Virus record (IMG/VR): IMGVR_UViG_2563366881_000002
Coordinates: 1 to 43,852 of that record
DNA from: a virus
Taxonomy: Duplodnaviria; Heunggongvirae; Uroviricota; Caudoviricetes
Length of the DNA: 43,852 nucleotides
Reading direction: 5' to 3' (one strand)
Below are positions 3,966-19,754 of this stretch, one piece after another; position 1 is the stretch's first letter; each line of letters starts with the position of its first letter. The translations under genes were made by a program, and so were the position numbers. The notes under the pieces are model-generated. The model was not told the DNA's origin, ran no database searches, and worked only from the letters and a program-made list of their open reading frames with translations.

Positions 3966-4459
3966 TTTGCTGCTCCTCATCATATCGACCCTGCAAGGTC
4001 GGTTGGTTTCTCCACAAAACAGAGAAGAACACCTGCGGTGGCAGCCGCCCGGATGGATTGGGTTATGAGCCCGTCGTCCGGTGATGCTCTTCTCTGTTTT
4101 GCAAAAAAGGACGGTACCAGCCGGAAGCAAGGGTACAAACTGGTACCGCCAGGACTACACACAGCATAAAGTTGTGGTGCCGGGTGCCTCCCGGTGCCTG
4201 GCGAAGGTTGCACACCAGGCGGGTGGGTATCCACAGAAGGTCGACTGTCAGCCTCAACCTTAACCCGCGTGCGCTGAGCCGCATTCACCACAACGCTAAG
4301 GATTCTCTCTGGTTGAAAATACTTAGCTGTTATGTGCCTGCTTTTAGCCACATCAGGCGAGGTGGACCTGGTTATTCCCCAACAACAAGGATTCGGTTAA
4401 TCTGGATATCCCCAACAACAATAAGAGTATTCAATGTGATCGCTGAATTAACGGCAGCA

Positions 4460-12604: not shown

Positions 12605-13357
12605 ATGAACCTTGAAGCCTTACCAAAATATTACTCCCCAAAATCTCCAAAATTGAGCGATGACGCACCGGCGACAGGCTCAGGTGGTTTAACGATTACG
12701 GATGTGATGGCTGCGCAGGGGATGGTGCAGTCGAAAGCACCGCTTGGGTTTGCCTTATTCCTGGCAAAAGTTGGTGTTCAGGATCCTCAGTTTGCGATTG
12801 AAGGTCTGCTCAATTACGCGATGGCAATGGATAACCCGACATTGAACAAATTGAGTGAAGAAACCCGGTTACAGATCATCCCTTACCTTGTGAGTTTTGC
12901 CTTTGCTGATTATTCCAGGTCTGCGGCAAGTAAGGCTCGCTGTGAGCATTGTGCTGGTACTGGATTTCATAGTGTATTGCGCGAAGTGGTGAAACACTCC
13001 AGAAGCGGGGAATCTGTTATCAAGGAAGAGTGGGTGAAGGAATTATGTCAGCATTGCCATGGTAAGGGAGAAGTCAGCACGGCTTGCAGAGGGTGTAAGG
13101 GTAAAGGCATTGTCCTGGATGAAAAAAGAACCCGGCTTCATGGCACACCTGTTTATAAGATTTGTGGGCGTTGCAATGGAAACCGGTTTAGTCGTTTACC
13201 GACCACACTGGCACGACGTCATGTCCAGAAGCTGGTACCAGACCTGACTGATTATCAGTGGTACAAAGGATATGCAGACGTCATTGATAAACTGGTAACA
13301 AAGTGCTGGCAGGAAGAAGCATTCGCTGAAGCACAATTGAGAAAGGTGACGAGATAA
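12605..13357 (+). CDS. Q: late-gene antitermination protein Q (QuuQ/Q82-like, zinc-binding)
   Basis: 250 aa; CxxC pairs (CEHCAGTG, CQHCHGKG, CRGCKGKG, CGRCNG); followed by candidate pR' and terminator; position between nin-like genes and lysis cassette. Confidence 0.7.
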   Translation: MNLEALPKYYSPKSPKLSDDAPATGSGGLTITDVMAAQGMVQSKAPLGFALFLAKVGVQDPQFAIEGLLNYAMAMDNPTLNKLSEETRLQIIPYLVSFAFADYSRSAASKARCEHCAGTGFHSVLREVVKHSRSGESVIKEEWVKELCQHCHGKGEVSTACRGCKGKGIVLDEKRTRLHGTPVYKICGRCNGNRFSRLPTTLARRHVQKLVPDLTDYQWYKGYADVIDKLVTKCWQEEAFAEAQLRKVTR

Positions 13358-13388
13358 GTGATTTTCACCGAAGATGGCGACATGATGC

Positions 13389-13417
13389 TTGCATTTCTCA
13401 AAAAATATGGATAAGAT
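13389..13417 (+). promoter_or_regulatory. candidate late promoter pR' (TTGCAT-N17-TAAGAT)
   Basis: Sigma70-like -35 TTGCAT (13389-13394) and -10 TAAGAT (13412-13417) with 17-nt spacer, ~30 bp after Q stop. Confidence 0.35.
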
Positions 13418-13462
13418 TTTCCCAACGATGGGCTTTGTATGTCTACCGTTGATGAGTCCAAG

Positions 13463-13494
13463 AACCCGCCGCCGAGCGGGTTAAATTATTTTTT
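13463..13494 (+). terminator. intrinsic terminator (tR'-like) downstream of candidate pR'
   Basis: Stem AACCCGC/GCGGGTT with 6-nt loop followed by AAATTATTTTTTC. Confidence 0.4.
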
Positions 13495-13511
13495 CTTACA
13501 CGGGGATATGG

Positions 13512-14042
13512 ATGTTATACCGAGATCTTTTGCCTATTTTCTCAGAAAGACCCATATTTAAAGCTCCTGAGGCTGAAAGAATACTTCGTGAGCAATATTC
13601 TATCGCCGCCCCCACTCCTGTAATTCAGGAGATTTATTATGGATTGGCAGGTTATGACAGATTTCAGGAGCTTTATGGGGATCTTAATATTGACCAAATC
13701 GAATGGAAATTGATTGAACTTCCCACTAAAAATTTTTTAACTATCGGGGATAATGCTACTTACCCTGATTTTTTGCATGAGGTCGTTGAAGATTTCACAA
13801 CCCGTAAAGGCGATGTATTTATGGATGATGAAATAAAAGCGCATTGGTGTAATTTTGGCACATGGTGTGAACCTCCATTTTTTATAGATCGAGCTTTGCT
13901 GAAAAGTAATACAACAGGGCTTCATTTAATGGAAGGGCATACAAGAGTTGGAACCCTGTTAGGGGCAGTTAAGTATAACTTCGTTAAGCTTGCTAATACT
14001 CATAAAATTTATTATGCGCAAGCAAAAGAATGTATTAAATAA
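13512..14042 (+). CDS. hypothetical protein, AT-rich cargo (176 aa)
   Basis: Clean ORF followed by a strong intrinsic terminator; AT-rich codon usage; no family recognised by eye. Confidence 0.55.
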   Translation: MLYRDLLPIFSERPIFKAPEAERILREQYSIAAPTPVIQEIYYGLAGYDRFQELYGDLNIDQIEWKLIELPTKNFLTIGDNATYPDFLHEVVEDFTTRKGDVFMDDEIKAHWCNFGTWCEPPFFIDRALLKSNTTGLHLMEGHTRVGTLLGAVKYNFVKLANTHKIYYAQAKECIK

Positions 14043-14078
14043 GTTGAGTGAAATTACTGTTTTTTTTTAACAATACTT

Positions 14079-14101
14079 ACCGCGTTCTCGCGGTTTTTTT
14101 A
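14079..14101 (+). terminator. rho-independent terminator
   Basis: ACCGCG-TTCT-CGCGGT hairpin followed by T7. Confidence 0.6.
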
Positions 14102-14223
14102 TAAATTAAACATTGGTGCAGTACGGTAAACACGCTGGTGGTCGTGAATACTGACTTTTTATCTTGCTGGCTTTTTAGACAAGAGTTATTGGTATGTCAT
14201 GTTAACCATGAAGGTAAAAAGAC

Positions 14224-14418
14224 ATGCTAAAACAGCAAGATATGACAGAAACGGCGAAAGTTGTTTTTAATGAATTAAACGGCAAACCGGCAACAGTCGG
14301 GGAGATAGCACAAAACACATACCTTTCACGCGAACGCTGTCAGTTAATACTGACCCAGCTGGTTATGGCGGGGCTGGCAGATTACCAGTTCGGCTGTTAC
14401 AGACGCCTTCAGCAATGA
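14224..14418 (+). CDS. small hypothetical protein (64 aa), possible winged-helix DNA-binding protein
   Basis: Short ORF upstream of methyltransferase; helix-turn-helix-like ..ATVGEIAQNTYLSRERCQLILTQL.. Confidence 0.4.
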   Translation: MLKQQDMTETAKVVFNELNGKPATVGEIAQNTYLSRERCQLILTQLVMAGLADYQFGCYRRLQQ

Positions 14419-14567
14419 AGGGCTTTTAATTTGTGAAAATGGGCGGCTGGTGGGTGTTGGTAGCACCTGCCAGCCATTCGCTCATGCTTACTGGTCACAA
14501 GCGAACCATGGCCCACTGCTTTAGCGCAAAAGCAGAGTGAGCCTACCAGAGTTACGCTTACTGATCC

Positions 14568-15629
14568 ATGAAAAACACTGTAAAAATAAACAGTATTGAT
14601 TTAATCAACGCTGATTGCCTGCATTTTATTCAGTCCCTGCCTGATGATTCCATTGACCTGATTGTTACCGATCCGCCTTACTTCAAGGTGAAACCCAACG
14701 GTTGGGACAATCAGTGGAAAGGGGACGAAGATTACCTTAAGTGGCTGGACCACTGTCTGGCCCAGTTCTGGCGGGTGTTGAAACCTGCCGGAAGCCTTTA
14801 CCTGTTCTGTGGGCATCGCCTGGCATCTGATATTGAGATCATGATGCGTGAACGTTTCAACGTGCTTAACCATATCATCTGGGCGAAGCCGTCCGGACGT
14901 TGGAATGGGTGTAATAAAGAAAGTCTGCGCGCATATTTTCCTGCCACAGAGCGCGTTCTGTTTGCTGAACATTACCGGGGGCCATATCGCGGCAAAAGTG
15001 ACGGCTATGTGGCAAAAGAAAGGGAACTCAAACAGCACATAATGGCACCGCTGATATCGTATTTCAGGGATGCTCGTGCCGAACTGGGTATAACGGCAAA
15101 ACAAATTGCCGAAGCCACAGGTAAGAAAAATATGGTTTCCCACTGGTTTGGTGCCAGTCAGTGGCAGTTGCCGAATGAGGCTGACTACCGGAAGTTACAG
15201 GCACTGTTTTCCCGTATAGCGGCAGAGAAGTTTCAGGAACAACAACTGGAACAACCACACCACCAGTTGGTGGCATCTTATGATTCACTGAATCGCAAAT
15301 ATTCTGAATTGCTGGATGAGTTTAAATCTCTCCGGCGCTATTTCTCCGTATCAGTCTCCGTGCCTTATACCGATGTCTGGATGCATAAACCCGTTCAGTT
15401 CTACCCGGGTAAACATCCGTGTGAGAAACCGGCGGATATGCTCAGGCAAATAATCAATGCCAGTAGTCGACCCGGCGATCTGGTTGCTGATTTCTTTATG
15501 GGATCCGGTTCCACAATAAAAGCAGCAATGGCGCTGGGGCGTCGGGCGTTAGGTGTTGAGCTTGAGACAGAGCGGTTTAATCAGACCATCCAGGAAATCA
15601 GTATGTTATCAGCAAATACAATTTTGTGA
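14568..15629 (+). CDS. DNA methyltransferase, beta-class amino-MTase (N6-adenine or N4-cytosine), orphan
   Basis: Motif IV DPPY (..LIVTDPPYF..) near N-terminus and motif I FxGxG (..FFMGSGST..) near C-terminus; no adjacent restriction endonuclease recognised. Confidence 0.85.
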   Translation: MKNTVKINSIDLINADCLHFIQSLPDDSIDLIVTDPPYFKVKPNGWDNQWKGDEDYLKWLDHCLAQFWRVLKPAGSLYLFCGHRLASDIEIMMRERFNVLNHIIWAKPSGRWNGCNKESLRAYFPATERVLFAEHYRGPYRGKSDGYVAKERELKQHIMAPLISYFRDARAELGITAKQIAEATGKKNMVSHWFGASQWQLPNEADYRKLQALFSRIAAEKFQEQQLEQPHHQLVASYDSLNRKYSELLDEFKSLRRYFSVSVSVPYTDVWMHKPVQFYPGKHPCEKPADMLRQIINASSRPGDLVADFFMGSGSTIKAAMALGRRALGVELETERFNQTIQEISMLSANTIL

Positions 15630-15870
15630 ATTAATTCAATTATTGGTGGGATGTCTGTGCCGTATAATGATTACAGATACAGTGTATCCTGCAATGCAGC
15701 AGGGCTGATGTGGTGGGTTGTACATAGCCTGCAAAGGATTGGCTTCATTAATTCATCGTTGATACAAGCGAGTCACGGTTGACCACGCCAACGGCTCATC
15801 GGTAAAAATCCGACACCGTGTCTTCTTAACTCACTTATTGTTTCCACCCATGTTTTTGGATACCTGCTGT

Positions 15871-15910
15871 AGCTGTCAGATTAGCGCGATAATCTGACAG
15901 CTTTTTTTTT
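15871..15910 (+). terminator. rho-independent terminator
   Basis: 12-bp stem AGCTGTCAGATT...AATCTGACAGCT followed by T9. Confidence 0.55.
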
Positions 15911-16201
15911 ACAACGAATCCTTCTGATCTGCTTTTGCGGGGCTTTTTTGTATCCGCTCCATGCCCGGCGTATAAGCGGAGGTTGGTCAGTTTTCTAAAA
16001 ATTGAAATACCTCACAATTCAGCCAGTTAATGGTTGTTTGTCTGGCGAAGAGTTTGTAAATAAAAAAACGCATGGTGAATCCCCCTAAGCGGCGGGGCGA
16101 ATCAGCAGTCAGTTCTGGGATAATCGCGGGTTCGTATGCTGATGCCGGACTCACCGGGAGGCACCCGGCACCATGCATCATGGTCATCCCCTTGTATGAT
16201 A

Positions 16202-16226
16202 CCCCTCTCCGGAGGGGTATTTTTTG
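16202..16226 (+). terminator. rho-independent terminator
   Basis: CCCCTC-TCCG-GAGGGG hairpin followed by TATTTTTT. Confidence 0.55.
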
Positions 16227-16658
16227 GATAAAAAAGCCCGCGCTGGGAGGCACGGGCGGCAAGGAATAAAACGTGAAGAAATTTTCACAGGCGCATAATA
16301 ATCCGATGTTGCCAGATTTTGCAACTGCATCATCTGGTTATTATGTGAGCTGGAAAATCAGATTCTGTATGGACTGAAGCCATGCTGTTATTTAGGGCCA
16401 AAGAGCTGGCTTTTTCCCGCCTTCTCTCCAGTAACGATTAATGAGAAAAGAATGAAATGCTTTTCCTGGGGAGGAGGGCAGTAGAAAAAAGAACCCGCCA
16501 GCAAAAATATGGGGGATGAACAGCTTTTGCTACTCAGGTTGCTGGCGGGTATGGTTCTTCATGAAATAAGAATGTTACGCGGTATTTTTAATGAAAATGA
16601 TAATTATTGTCAATTGGTTGTGCGTATTTTTTCATACATGACTGGTAAAGGTGATTCA

Positions 16659-16692
16659 GGCCATCAGAGTTTTGCTGATGGCCTTTTTTCTT
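16659..16692 (+). terminator. rho-independent terminator immediately upstream of holin
   Basis: GGCCATCAG-AGTTTTG-CTGATGGCC followed by TTTTTTC. Confidence 0.55.
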
Positions 16693-16722
16693 TCCGGTAG
16701 CACAGGTCTGTTGGGGCGGGAT

Positions 16723-16938
16723 ATGTATCAGATGGAAAAAATATCAACAGGCATTGCCTACGGCACCTCCGCAGGCAGTGCTGGCTACTGGTTTTTACAA
16801 TGGCTTGATCAGGTTAGTCCGTCTCAGTGGGCTGCGATTGGTGTACTGGGAAGTCTGGTTCTGGGCTTTCTGACTTATCTGACGAATCTGTACTTCAAAA
16901 TCAGAGAAGACAGAAGAAAGGCTGCGAGAGGAGAGTAA
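16723..16938 (+). CDS. holin, phage-21 S21 / EssQ-type pinholin with dual start (71/68 aa)
   Basis: [71 protein letters not shown] closely matches recalled S21; two in-frame ATGs (16723, 16732) give the holin/antiholin dual-start motif. Confidence 0.85.
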
Positions 16939-16942
16939 TATA

Positions 16943-17287
16943 ATGGTCCAAAACTATGAAATGATTGTGAAAGGGATCCGCAATTTTGAGAATAAAGTTA
17001 CGGTAACTTTAGCATTACAGGACAAAGAACGCTTTGACGGTGAAATTTTTGACCTGGACATCTCGCTGGACCGTGTTGAAGGTGCCGCGCTGGAGTTTTA
17101 TGAGGCAGCAGCCAGAAGGAGCATCAGACAGGTCTTCCTGGATGTTGCTGCCGGGTTATGTGGAGGGGATGAGCAGTCGCCGGAAAAGCGCCCCATAATT
17201 TTAGAGGCGCAGAGTGTGTGGATAACCTACAAAGGAAAACTGCCGGGAAGAATTACTGGTTCACTGAAGACTCCGCCGAAATGGTAA
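16943..17287 (+). CDS. hypothetical protein between holin and endolysin (YdfR/DUF1327-like by position)
   Basis: 114-aa ORF starting 5 nt after holin stop; Qin has ydfR in the same slot (recalled, sequence not verified). Confidence 0.45.
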   Translation: MVQNYEMIVKGIRNFENKVTVTLALQDKERFDGEIFDLDISLDRVEGAALEFYEAAARRSIRQVFLDVAAGLCGGDEQSPEKRPIILEAQSVWITYKGKLPGRITGSLKTPPKW

Positions 17288-17525
17288 TTTCACCAGCATA
17301 TTTTTCTTCCAGTAATACCGCCAGCCACTTGAAAGAATTTTGTTGTTGCTGGGACCATTTGGGGTTGAGTGATTCAAGCTGGAGCGATGCCAGTGTTGGT
17401 TGCATTTGTTCCTTGGGAATTGAGAATGCCAGATATGAAAATGCGACAGTAAGGGCATTTACATCATCCCGAAGCCTGGAAATGCAGTCGAGCAACTCCT
17501 GTAGAGAAATGGTGCTATTGTCCAT
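17253..17525 (-). CDS. hypothetical small protein (90 aa) on opposite strand inside lysis cassette
   Basis: ATG at 17525 preceded by strong SD GAGAGGA (6-nt spacing); protein-like composition; 3' end overlaps the upstream plus-strand ORF by ~35 nt. Confidence 0.35.
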   Translation of the reverse strand: MDNSTISLQELLDCISRLRDDVNALTVAFSYLAFSIPKEQMQPTLASLQLESLNPKWSQQQQNSFKWLAVLLEEKYAGEITISAESSVNQ

Positions 17526-17630
17526 AAACAATCCTCTCTATTGTATTTAACTATTCCTTGCCTGATTCAACAGGCCGGGACAGATAAACATATCCAGGGT
17601 TCAGAAACCGATAAATCCTGATAAATATCC

Positions 17631-18164
17631 ATGAACGCAAAAATCAGATACAGCCTGTCGGCTACTGTACTAGTGCTGATTGGTGCAGGCGCGTCTGCTC
17701 CTCAAATACTTGACCAGTTTCTGGACGAAAAAGAAGGTAACCACACAACGGCATACCGTGATGGTTCCGGCATCTGGACCATCTGTCGGGGTGCCACGAT
17801 GGTGGATGGAAAACCCGTTTTTCCCGGTATGAAACTGTCGAAGGAAAAATGCGACCAGGTTAACGCCATCGAACGTGATAAGGCGCTGGCATGGGTGGAA
17901 CGTAATATTAAAGTACCACTGACCGAACCACAAAAAGCGGGTATCGCGTCATTTTGCCCCTATAACATTGGCCCCGGTAAGTGTTTCCCGTCGACGTTTT
18001 ATAAGCGGCTTAATGCCGGTGATCGTAAAGGTGCCTGTGAGTCGATTCGCTGGTGGATTAAGGACGGTGGGCGTGATTGCCGCACACGTTCAAATAACTG
18101 CTACGGACAGGTTATTCGTCGTGACCAGGAAAGCGCATTAGCCTGTTGGGGGATAGATCAGTGA
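17631..18164 (+). CDS. SAR endolysin (T4-lysozyme-like, RrrQ/R21-type)
   Basis: N-terminal Gly/Ala-rich weakly hydrophobic SAR segment (..[16 protein letters not shown]..); catalytic E-x8-D-x5-T (..[16 protein letters not shown]..); 177 aa. Confidence 0.85.
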
Positions 18165-18653: not shown

Positions 18654-18947
18654 TTATTTTGAGCAATACACCCGCGCTTCCAGCGGAGTATAAATGCCAA
18701 AAGTGATGAAACCGAGCAATCCATTTACGAATGTTTGCTGGGTTTCTGTTTTAACCACATTTTCTGCACCACCACAAATTTTTGCTGCATCGACAGTTTT
18801 CTTCTGCCCAATTCCCGAAACGAAGAAATGATGGGTGATGGTTTCCTTTGGTGTTACTGCTGTCGGTTTGTTTCCAACAGTAAACGTCTGTTGAGCACAT
18901 CCTGTAATAAGCATTGCCAGAGCGGCAGAAAACAACATTTTTTTCAT
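18654..18947 (-). CDS. bor: Bor lipoprotein (serum-resistance family)
   Basis: MKKMLFSAALAMLITGCAQQTFTV...TPLEARVYCSK near-identical to recalled lambda Bor; 97 aa; lipobox LITGC. Confidence 0.85.
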   Translation of the reverse strand: MKKMLFSAALAMLITGCAQQTFTVGNKPTAVTPKETITHHFFVSGIGQKKTVDAAKICGGAENVVKTETQQTFVNGLLGFITFGIYTPLEARVYCSK

Positions 18948-19427: not shown

Positions 19428-19754
19428 ATGAAAAGACGCCTTTTACTACTTTTTCTGTTATCTGTCCTAGCAGTGGGATGCTCGCAGCAAAAAGCTGATG
19501 AGCCCCGGCAATTAGTGACGGTGTATCCACGATATCCGGAATATGCTGCAGCAAATTATATCAAGGGGCTGGTTGAGGTTAAGTTCGATATTGGTGCTGA
19601 TGGGACTGTGACACGGATCGTTTTTCTCCGCTCAGAGCCTCATAATTTGTTTCGTGATGAAGTGGTGAAGGCCATGGCGAAATGGCGATTTGAAAAGAAT
19701 CGTCCCTGTCAGGGAGTGAAGAGACAATTTATCTTTACGCCGTCACGTCCCTGA
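19428..19754 (+). CDS. lipoprotein with TonB C-terminal-domain-like fold
   Basis: MKRRLLLLFLLSVLAVGC lipobox; ..YPRYPEYAAANYIKGLVEVKFDIGADGTV..AMAKWRFEK.. resembles the TonB C-terminal domain; SD AGGA upstream. Confidence 0.55.
   Translation: MKRRLLLLFLLSVLAVGCSQQKADEPRQLVTVYPRYPEYAAANYIKGLVEVKFDIGADGTVTRIVFLRSEPHNLFRDEVVKAMAKWRFEKNRPCQGVKRQFIFTPSRP

Follow-up and report, generated by a model that had tools for sequence, protein, structure and literature searches.

The stretch at positions 15630-16720 of a 43,852-nt lambdoid prophage sequence (IMG/VR record IMGVR_UViG_2563366881_000002, called the window throughout) is very likely a cluster of autonomous small RNA (sRNA) genes placed in the late-operon "moron" slot, most of them from known prophage families. 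Unit B is a bona fide STnc100/PasD-family gene in both sequence and structure, and unit C, which converges on it from the opposite strand, belongs by sequence and structure to the PapR/EcOnc type. Unit A, further upstream, is probably a divergent relative of STnc100, as structural modelling suggests. Module D, next to the holin gene, probably encodes one or two iron-repressed sRNAs, judging from its sequence signals. A preliminary description of the stretch had offered small RNAs as its main guess; units B and C bear this out, and A and D are further candidates. The minus-strand genes, the predicted Fur box and the homology to plasmids and islands lay beyond what that first reading could see.

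The prophage sits at argU (tRNA-Arg, next to fimZ; the DLP12 site) in Escherichia coli of extraintestinal pathogenic (ExPEC) or avian pathogenic (APEC) type. The stretch lies 3′ of the antiterminator gene Q and fills the interval from a DNA methyltransferase gene to the lysis genes. Units B and C and their signals are arranged as follows.

16070..16229, plus strand: unit B, an STnc100/PasD-family sRNA gene (Rfam match 16041-16229)
16198-16221, plus strand: terminator of unit B, 10 bp stem, from the terminator scan
16288..16230, minus strand: unit C, a convergent sRNA of ~59 nt, PapR/EcOnc08-21-42 type
16257..16236, minus strand: strong terminator of unit C, from the scan, missed in the preliminary description
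16324..16295, minus strand: promoter of unit C, TTGCAA-18-TATTAT, from the promoter scan; TATTAT is conserved in the homologue alignment (A1)

Unit B matches the Rfam STnc100 model (RF02076) from end to end with 114.5 bits, where the gathering score is 47. With our own covariance model (R1), built for the 5′ domain of STnc100/PasD from 17 diverse IMG/VR sequences, it scores 92 bits. It has the architecture of that domain, in which a closing helix (GCAUGGUG/CACCAUGC) surrounds CCCCC/GGGGG and CCGGG/CCCGG hairpins. Its first 13 nt, GCATGGTGAATCC, coincide base for base with the mapped 5′ end of PasD1 and PasD2, whose coordinates in E2348/69, a strain of enteropathogenic E. coli (EPEC), are given in table S6 of PMC8550237. 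In EPEC PasD is expressed and Hfq-associated, with an interactome defined by RIL-seq, in which interacting RNAs are ligated and sequenced (PMC8550237). PasD and STnc100 form one prophage sRNA family; most PasD hits lie within 10 kb of the antiterminator Q and pasD1 adjoins a holin/lysozyme operon (Zhu, Shabalina, Storz; bioRxiv 10.64898/2026.05.13.724894). Unit B has the same lambdoid late-region setting, with Q at 12605-13357 and the holin gene from 16723. By analogy with PasD, a unit B transcript that binds Hfq would be expected in this prophage.

Across IMG/VR the 5′ domain of the STnc100 family is conserved with covarying helices, whereas the 3′ tails and terminators are interchangeable. 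Tandem STnc100-type genes 232-483 nt apart are common in lambdoid IMG/VR contigs (L034, L037, L049, L050, L058, L072, L098, L104).

Unit C was identified through an EPEC sRNA. Positions 16306..16230 of the window align with nt 97-181 of E2348C_1409.1408.IGR at 81% identity over 86 nt (BLAST E = 1.8e-14). This RNA was found in EPEC by RIL-seq and has the homologues EcOnc08, EcOnc21 and EcOnc42 in enterohaemorrhagic E. coli (EHEC) (PMC8550237). The cloning primers for PapR of the uropathogenic E. coli (UPEC) strain UTI89 (PMC4546395) match both ends of the same family, so PapR is the long form (~180 nt) of an E2348C_1409.1408.IGR-type RNA. A full-length PapR-type transcript of ~180 nt has no counterpart in the window, where the homology ends at 16306. 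Because the PapR 5′ half is absent, only the short form of ~59 nt is possible, from the internal TTGCAA/TATTAT promoter. Unit C aligns with phage and prophage homologues, and its folding z-score is -4.8. In silico it is complementary to papI at about nt 61-100 of the open reading frame (ORF); the best duplex, with papI nt 61-90, has an energy of -37.7 kcal/mol and includes the terminator stem. The homologues in E2348/69 PP6 and in a copy from a Shiga toxin (Stx) 2a phage give -36.5 and -36.9. The published PapR site on papI lies 74-96 nt into the ORF and agrees with the unit C segment. From sequence, papI would be a plausible target of unit C, which may be expressed and bind Hfq as its relatives do.

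Units B and C stand tail to tail, ending at 16229 and 16230 with their terminators back to back. Convergent sRNA genes 3′ of pR′ in the moron site have been described for the EHEC prophages Sp3, 4, 5, 9, 10, 11, 15 and 17 (Tree et al. 2014, PMC4104026). In the Sakai Sp5 control, STnc100 (207.7 bits) and AsxR (88.1 bits) are recovered tail to tail, 3′ of stx2B. The B and C pair shares this layout, being tail to tail, 3′ of pR′ and of the cargo site, and 5′ of the next phage ORF. Upstream of AsxR, Sp5 (L150 3209-3300) also carries the 5′ half of a PapR-type transcript (AGCGGGCTGAAGTCCGGAAG...); AsxR/AgvB and PapR-type RNAs thus look like alternative 3′ ends of one locus.

Upstream of the pair lie unit A and a scar of another kind of cargo.

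15621..15668, plus strand: promoter region of unit A, with -10 TATAAT at 15663-15668; the 5′ edge of the module is at ~15621
15675..15910, plus strand: unit A, a candidate sRNA of ~235 nt in which a structured 5′ domain (15677-15821) is followed by a single-stranded tail and then a terminator
15871-15902, with T9 to ~15910, plus strand: terminator of unit A, 13 bp stem, from the scan; the strongest in the stretch
15914..15975, plus strand: scar left by the 3′ flank of a phage tRNA cluster of the ileZ-argN-argO type, with a weak terminator inside it at 15928-15950

The unit A module recurs in L011, where it lies directly between methyltransferase and holin genes, in L017, and in L012, where there is no methyltransferase upstream and no prophage context. 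TATAAT is invariant in the three homologues, and the terminator in L011 has a compensatory change of the inner stem (ATTA/TAAT to ACGAT/ATCGT). The Rfam STnc100 model gives 17.6 bits at 15655-15862, far below its gathering score of 47, so unit A is not an STnc100 member by the Rfam criterion. With our 5′-domain model the homologues in L017 and L011 score 27.8 bits (E = 1.4e-4) and 24.2 bits (E = 1e-3). RNAalifold, run on the four copies of unit A, returns a closing helix and inner hairpins like those of STnc100, with compensatory changes in eight pairs. The counterparts of the STnc100 helices have changed sequences, namely ACACGGUG/CACCGUGU for the closing helix and CCUGC/GCAGG and UCGG/CCGA for the hairpins. 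These features point to a divergent relative of STnc100 as the probable identity of unit A. In the tail of unit A (15822-15870, plus strand) there is an AACUCAC complementary to the PasD seed GUGAGUU; as a 7-mer this match may be due to chance. The target motif of PasD from RIL-seq is CUCACA.

A third STnc100-like gene is found elsewhere in the window. The 5′-domain model matches 4293..4172 on the minus strand with 46.5 bits (E = 2e-9). The copy extends over 4293..4103, with a tail followed by a GGTACCAG/CTGGTACC hairpin and T6. The Rfam full-length STnc100 model gives no match to it at the gathering threshold. It lies in the early-left (yfdP-yfdT-like) region, at a site where RefSeq has a frameshifted hypothetical pseudogene.

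The scar of ~60 nt between A and B aligns just 3′ of the third tRNA, tRNA-Arg(tct), in the Stx2a phage L002 and in the non-Stx prophage L013, and the match includes a small terminator there. In both relatives the tRNAs come first, followed by the flank, the cargo (stx2AB or TerB/DUF3927), STnc100 and the convergent sRNA. The slot in the window is an emptied cargo site, because the flank scar is kept while tRNAs and cargo are both gone. ARAGORN finds no tRNA gene in the whole window and Rfam has none either; of the ileZ-argN-argO cluster the 3′ flank at 15914-15975 alone is retained. Hence tRNA genes, one of the contents considered for this slot in the preliminary description, are absent, and its other suggestion of a decayed cargo region stands in part, for the tRNA cluster and cargo that once lay there.

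Module D follows unit C and reaches almost to the holin gene.

16326..16693, unstranded: module D, a non-coding block (~365 bp) shared with ColV-type plasmids and ExPEC pathogenicity islands
16593..16611, unstranded: predicted Fur box GAAAATGATAATTATTGTC, matching 16/19 positions of the consensus and overlapping both candidate promoters of D
16613..16584, minus strand: promoter-like site of candidate D-minus, TTGACA (16613..16608), 17-18 nt spacer, TAAAAAT, from the scan
16576..16483, minus strand: candidate sRNA D-minus, ~94 nt, with a 12-bp stem 16550-16539/16504-16493, then UCUUUUUUCU
16550..16493, followed by UCUUUUUUCU, minus strand: hairpin terminator of D-minus, found by eye and by folding (z = -6.4), missed in the preliminary description
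16612..16692, plus strand: candidate RNA D-plus, ~80 nt, with -10 GATAAT at 16599-16604, a poor -35, and a terminator at 16658-16684 with U6
16658-16684, with a T-run to 16690, plus strand: last terminator before the holin gene, 10 bp stem, from the scan

DNA ~85% identical to module D, and unannotated, is present in 555 plasmid records, most of them for conjugative plasmids of E. coli, and a ~85% identical segment occurs in 1,451 of 5,426 E. coli genomes. In ColV-type plasmids, including pS88, the copy lies between iroB and an Rz remnant, which is followed by iss; in pS88 it occupies about 111.74-112.10 kb. In sequence type 131 (ST131) it lies between the aerobactin (iuc) and pap loci, again beside an Rz remnant. 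The block of lysis remnant and iss is what carries module D onto ColV plasmids. Sequenced phages contain none of it beyond the 50 nt that directly precede the holin gene. An exact-pattern search found none in the GTDB species representatives, and a literature search with its sequences gave no hits. The homology ends on the left at the same nucleotide in all three copies (16326 in the window, ~5000 in L009, ~5000 in L010). The left neighbours are an sRNA promoter in the prophage, an insertion sequence (IS) remnant in the ColV plasmid and an ISL3 remnant in the ST131 island. The shared left break points to the end of a discrete element or to a hotspot of recombination.

The 16/19 match to the 19-bp Fur consensus at 16593-16611 is the only one in the 43.8 kb window, and none of 100 shuffles had such a match. 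The plasmid and island copies also match at 16/19, equal to the iroB and iucA boxes in those loci. A box that overlaps both promoters of D, as here, would be expected to place the module under Fur control. D-minus has the better credentials of the two candidates. It folds with -31.2 kcal/mol (z = -6.4) and is the best-conserved block of the module (91-93%, no indels), between flanks that carry indels and are 68-78% (left) and 77-85% (right) identical. Its promoter-like site is the best in 13000-18000, with 10/12 positions, and has a perfect TTGACA that is invariant across all lineages. D-plus has a folding z-score of -2.8, and a homologous plus-strand terminator lies ~50 nt before the holin gene in E2348/69 PP2.

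That module D is a Fur-repressed, Hfq-type sRNA gene, on the minus and/or plus strand, carried by three ExPEC vehicles (the argU prophage, the iro-iss interval of ColV/ColBM plasmids and the iuc-pap interval of chromosomal islands) is a tentative proposal. If true, it would be an accessory, horizontally spread and iron-responsive riboregulator, so far unannotated, that travels with siderophore and serum-resistance genes. Module D stands out because the same unannotated 365 bp lie beside genes for iron uptake and serum survival in hundreds of ColV plasmids and in ST131-type islands. An iron-responsive sRNA made from it would be a new regulator in a heavily studied virulence region. One of the three small ORFs between iroB and iss in pS88, ORF131, is up 9-14 fold in serum, in urine and in vivo, and only 2.4 fold in iron-depleted lysogeny broth (LB) (PMC3438092). 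ORF130-132 of pS88 (region L030 26683-27196) could not be mapped onto module D.

Some other identities of D were considered. D-plus (16593-16689, plus strand) resembles the 3′ part of SgrS, comprising seed and terminator, at 24.8 bits (E = 5e-4 for 3.7 kb; the gathering score is 37). It has ACUGGUAAAGGUGAU where SgrS has CUGAGUAUUGGUGUA, and the predicted ptsG pairing is poor. With a score below the gathering threshold, the resemblance is regarded as chance or convergent. For DNA entry, lambda-like phages depend on ManXYZ, which is an SgrS target; an SgrS mimic in a phage would be interesting in view of this need, if true. A PrrF-like identity of D-plus (18.7 bits, E = 1) is at chance level. 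PasA, PasB and PasC have no similarity in the window, where the usual site of PasB, between the tail genes I and J, was not examined separately. Among the window genes no convincing target of D or C emerged, and an apparent signal between D-minus and iss is a patchwork duplex.

Module D could instead be the relic of a pR′-qut-tR′ unit of another lambdoid phage, moved together with a P21-type lysis cassette and free of any sRNA or Fur role. It always abuts the lysis cassette or its remnant, and it has a late-strand -10 with a terminator ~80 nt downstream, like a 6S-type pR′-tR′ unit. Such an origin is quite unlikely, since a better pR′/tR′ candidate lies directly after Q and no copy of D was found beside a Q gene in E. 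coli genomes or in phage and IMG/VR copies. The plus-strand -35 is also poor, and the predicted Fur box fits the consensus as well as the iroB and iucA boxes do.

The genes around the stretch place the sRNA cluster inside a late operon of lambdoid design.

12605..13357, plus strand: antiterminator Q gene (Pfam PF03589, E = 1.4e-53; RefSeq "antitermination protein" in IHE3034)
13391-13419, plus strand: candidate pR′, TTGCAT-17-TAAGAT, read from the sequence
13463-13482 (region to 13495), plus strand: candidate tR′, stem and T-run, from the scan
14079-14094, plus strand: further terminator, after a 176-aa ORF
Q to methyltransferase interval: two small ORFs
14568-15629: N6/N4 DNA methyltransferase (PF01555)
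16723..16938, plus strand: class II (P21-type) holin, first lysis gene (PF04971, E = 1.2e-35; RefSeq agrees)
After the holin gene: YdfR-like gene, lysozyme and Rz (Pfam)
18654-18947, minus strand: iss (bor homologue), after Rz and on the opposite strand to the lysis genes
19428-19754, plus strand: TonB-family gene, after iss

In the K-12 prophage DLP12, which has the same attachment site, the region 5′ of essD is unrelated to the stretch. The promoter and terminator after Q are taken as pR′ and tR′ because of their position immediately 3′ of that gene; together they would give an RNA of ~70 nt, like lambda 6S or StxS. Thus the Q gene is followed by a promoter and a terminator, as in a Q-dependent late operon. 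From pR′ to the holin gene plus-strand terminators stand at 13463, 14079, 15871, 15928 (weak), 16198 and 16658, and the last four of these, three strong and one weak, are in the stretch. The three plus-strand hairpins named in the preliminary description were all recovered by the consensus terminator scan. Between 13000 and 18000 terminator-like sites are enriched (19, versus 5.2 +/- 2.2 in shuffles). The promoter-like elements of the preliminary description fared differently, with no overall enrichment (7 found versus 8.3 expected), while individual sites are conserved in homologues. The last T-run ends 32 nt before the holin start at 16723, in line with the ~30 nt first noted. With terminators in series between pR′ and the holin gene, the lysis genes would need Q antitermination, which is standard in lambdoid phages. 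This had also been supposed in the preliminary description; the Q gene and the pR′/tR′-like promoter and terminator agree with it, and read-through of the downstream terminators by Q would follow by analogy with lambda.

The series of terminators raises the reading that the stretch is mere insulation, in which plus-strand terminators silence lysis without Q, minus-strand ones block antisense transcription from iss/bor, and the RNAs have no role in trans. It fits the four strong plus-strand terminators and the weak one that separate pR′ from the holin gene, the last of them 32 nt before the ATG. The terminator just 5′ of the holin gene also recurs in the unrelated slot versions of L011 and E2348/69 PP2, and for this reason it looks like a general design feature. 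As the whole explanation insulation is doubtful, since one terminator would suffice, the units have promoters of their own, and homologous RNAs have documented trans targets or interactomes (PapR on papI; PasD by RIL-seq). Insulation and sRNA function are compatible with each other.

A protein-coding content of the stretch is highly improbable. The preliminary description saw no convincing ORF, and the longest is indeed one of 91 aa, antisense to the STnc100 gene. RefSeq leaves the stretch blank in IHE3034, and hypothetical proteins of 63-64 aa, called by the Prokaryotic Genome Annotation Pipeline (PGAP), are annotated inconsistently in other genomes. WP_000502162.1 (16509-16700, plus strand) and WP_000972071.1 (15987-16181, minus strand) are listed in some assemblies, which speaks for small proteins, but not in others with the identical sequence. 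The 63-aa ORF (16509-16700) has no Pfam match, and in the plasmid and island copies it has lost its ATG and carries a 1-nt indel that shifts the frame. The 64-aa ORF runs antisense inside the STnc100 gene, and a 43-aa ORF in unit A has lost its ATG in L011. Protein-coding readings were rejected on the Pfam result, the loss of start codons and the frameshift. A pseudogenised protein gene in the place of any sRNA, which the preliminary description held out as the outcome that would count against it, was looked for and did not appear.

Several observations weigh against the stretch as a set of working sRNA genes. RefSeq annotates no non-coding RNA there in IHE3034. Unit B has GTTAAT as its -35, compared with TTGACA in the homologues. 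Unit C is without the PapR 5′ half, and 7 nt are deleted immediately 5′ of the conserved motif. An identity of unit C with AsxR (RF02703) or AgvB (RF02702) was rejected, neither model giving a match at E <= 10 in 16200-16720. In the Sakai Sp5 positive control the two models score 88.1 and 40.9 bits, and as they miss unit C an anti-sRNA (sponge) function is not implied for it. The window copy of unit A reaches only 12.4 bits with the 5′-domain model (E = 0.34), as the third best match in the window, and has an A-C mismatch in the closing helix; unit A is possibly decaying in this lineage. In module D the predicted Fur box falls to 14/19 in a fourth lineage, L164. The -10 of D-minus is weak and variable, and the copies on plasmids and islands are without its conserved final T. 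In ColV copies a C-to-T substitution at 16542 makes a G-U pair on the plus strand and a C-A mismatch on the minus strand. The stem arms of D are otherwise invariant in IMG/VR and metagenome copies and display no covariation, which makes the covariation test of this hairpin uninformative. A D transcript is a candidate on the minus and/or plus strand, D-minus being the better one. A homology of D-minus to PasA/PasC was rejected too, as the best local alignment was matched by 48 of 500 shuffles and the BLAST hits were at chance level.

Part of this list also speaks for a decayed, emptied cargo slot whose hairpins and sRNA-like sequences would be recombination relics, no longer expressed or selected. 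The degenerate closing helix and low model score of unit A, the weakened -35 of unit B and a unit C shorter than PapR fit such decay, as do the tRNA-flank scar without tRNAs or cargo and the mosaic joints at ~15910, 16012 and 16326. Decay of the entire stretch is nevertheless unlikely. Of 5,426 complete E. coli genomes, 122 carry the full 1.1 kb at an identity of 99% or more, IHE3034, APEC O78 and PMV-1 among them. Unit B scores more than twice the Rfam gathering score and has an intact terminator, and in unit C the promoter, seed and terminator are all retained. In EPEC, EHEC and UPEC, RNAs of these families are abundant and bound by Hfq.

A cluster of sRNA genes in the moron slot would work as follows. 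Small-RNA genes would occupy the slot in place of protein cargo. Every unit has a promoter and a terminator of its own, with which it would start and end its transcript in the lysogen, so that expression would be possible while the late operon is silent. B would be a structured, Hfq-binding sRNA on the late strand and C a short sRNA opposite to it that keeps the papI-pairing sequence. Upstream, the second and divergent STnc100-like unit A would be separated from B by a scar marking the lost tRNA cluster and cargo. In module D, the Fur box over two overlapping candidate promoters would yield one or two iron-repressed sRNAs. The plus-strand terminators would stop transcription from pR′ or from the units before the holin gene in the lysogen. 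After induction, Q-modified RNA polymerase would read through the terminators and turn on the lysis genes.

Through prophage sRNAs of these families, core regulation is rewired in pathogenic E. coli, as with PapR on P-fimbriae and a PasD interactome that includes the type III secretion system (T3SS) and bfp. Where RefSeq is blank, the iss-carrying ExPEC/APEC prophage has at least the two sRNA genes B and C, and it may have four or five. Its locus offers a view of the Stx/tRNA cargo slot when that slot is empty.

Compared with known systems, the overall arrangement is familiar, and B and C add new alleles to families already known. Like STnc100, PasD and EcOnc13, unit B lies 3′ of Q and 5′ of a P21-type holin gene and ends in an intrinsic terminator, whereas its seed-bearing 3′ tail differs from that of PasD and from those of the Stx-phage copies. 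Unit A and the third copy (4293..4172) have the same 5′-domain architecture as STnc100. Unit C has the 3′ 85 nt of the PapR/EcOnc08-21-42 RNAs, in which the CCUUGCC motif and the terminator lie, and converges on STnc100. The 5′ half of PapR (nt 1-96, beginning with CGGGCUGAAGUCCGG) is missing in the window and has module D in its place at 16326. B and C are a convergent pair of the type already described for EHEC and EPEC prophages. The EHEC Sp pairs have the same locus design, with an sRNA of 51-60 nt directed toward an STnc100-type 3′ end, but the sequences differ.

Two predictions from sequence go beyond the searchable literature, namely the STnc100-like unit A in its linkage to a methyltransferase gene, and module D with its predicted Fur box. 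As in RyhB/PrrF and at the stx1 promoter, module D has this box over the candidate promoter of a short, terminator-ended unit. The stx1 promoter is Fur-regulated and lies in the same phage slot. RyhB has no Rfam match in D and no sequence relationship to it. D-minus has the same place and orientation as PasA/PasC (EcOnc51/52), being transcribed away from the holin gene from a start ~150 nt upstream of it. It likewise has a GCCAGC-containing terminator stem and a plus-strand terminator between itself and the holin gene. Unlike module D, PasA and PasC are without a Fur box. Morons, which Juhala et al. are said to have described in 2000, provide the wider frame. As in lambda, with its pR′/tR′ and morons, the Q gene, a promoter and a terminator are followed here by autonomous promoter-gene-terminator units before the lysis genes, and in contrast to lambda-type morons the cargo in this slot consists of RNA genes only.

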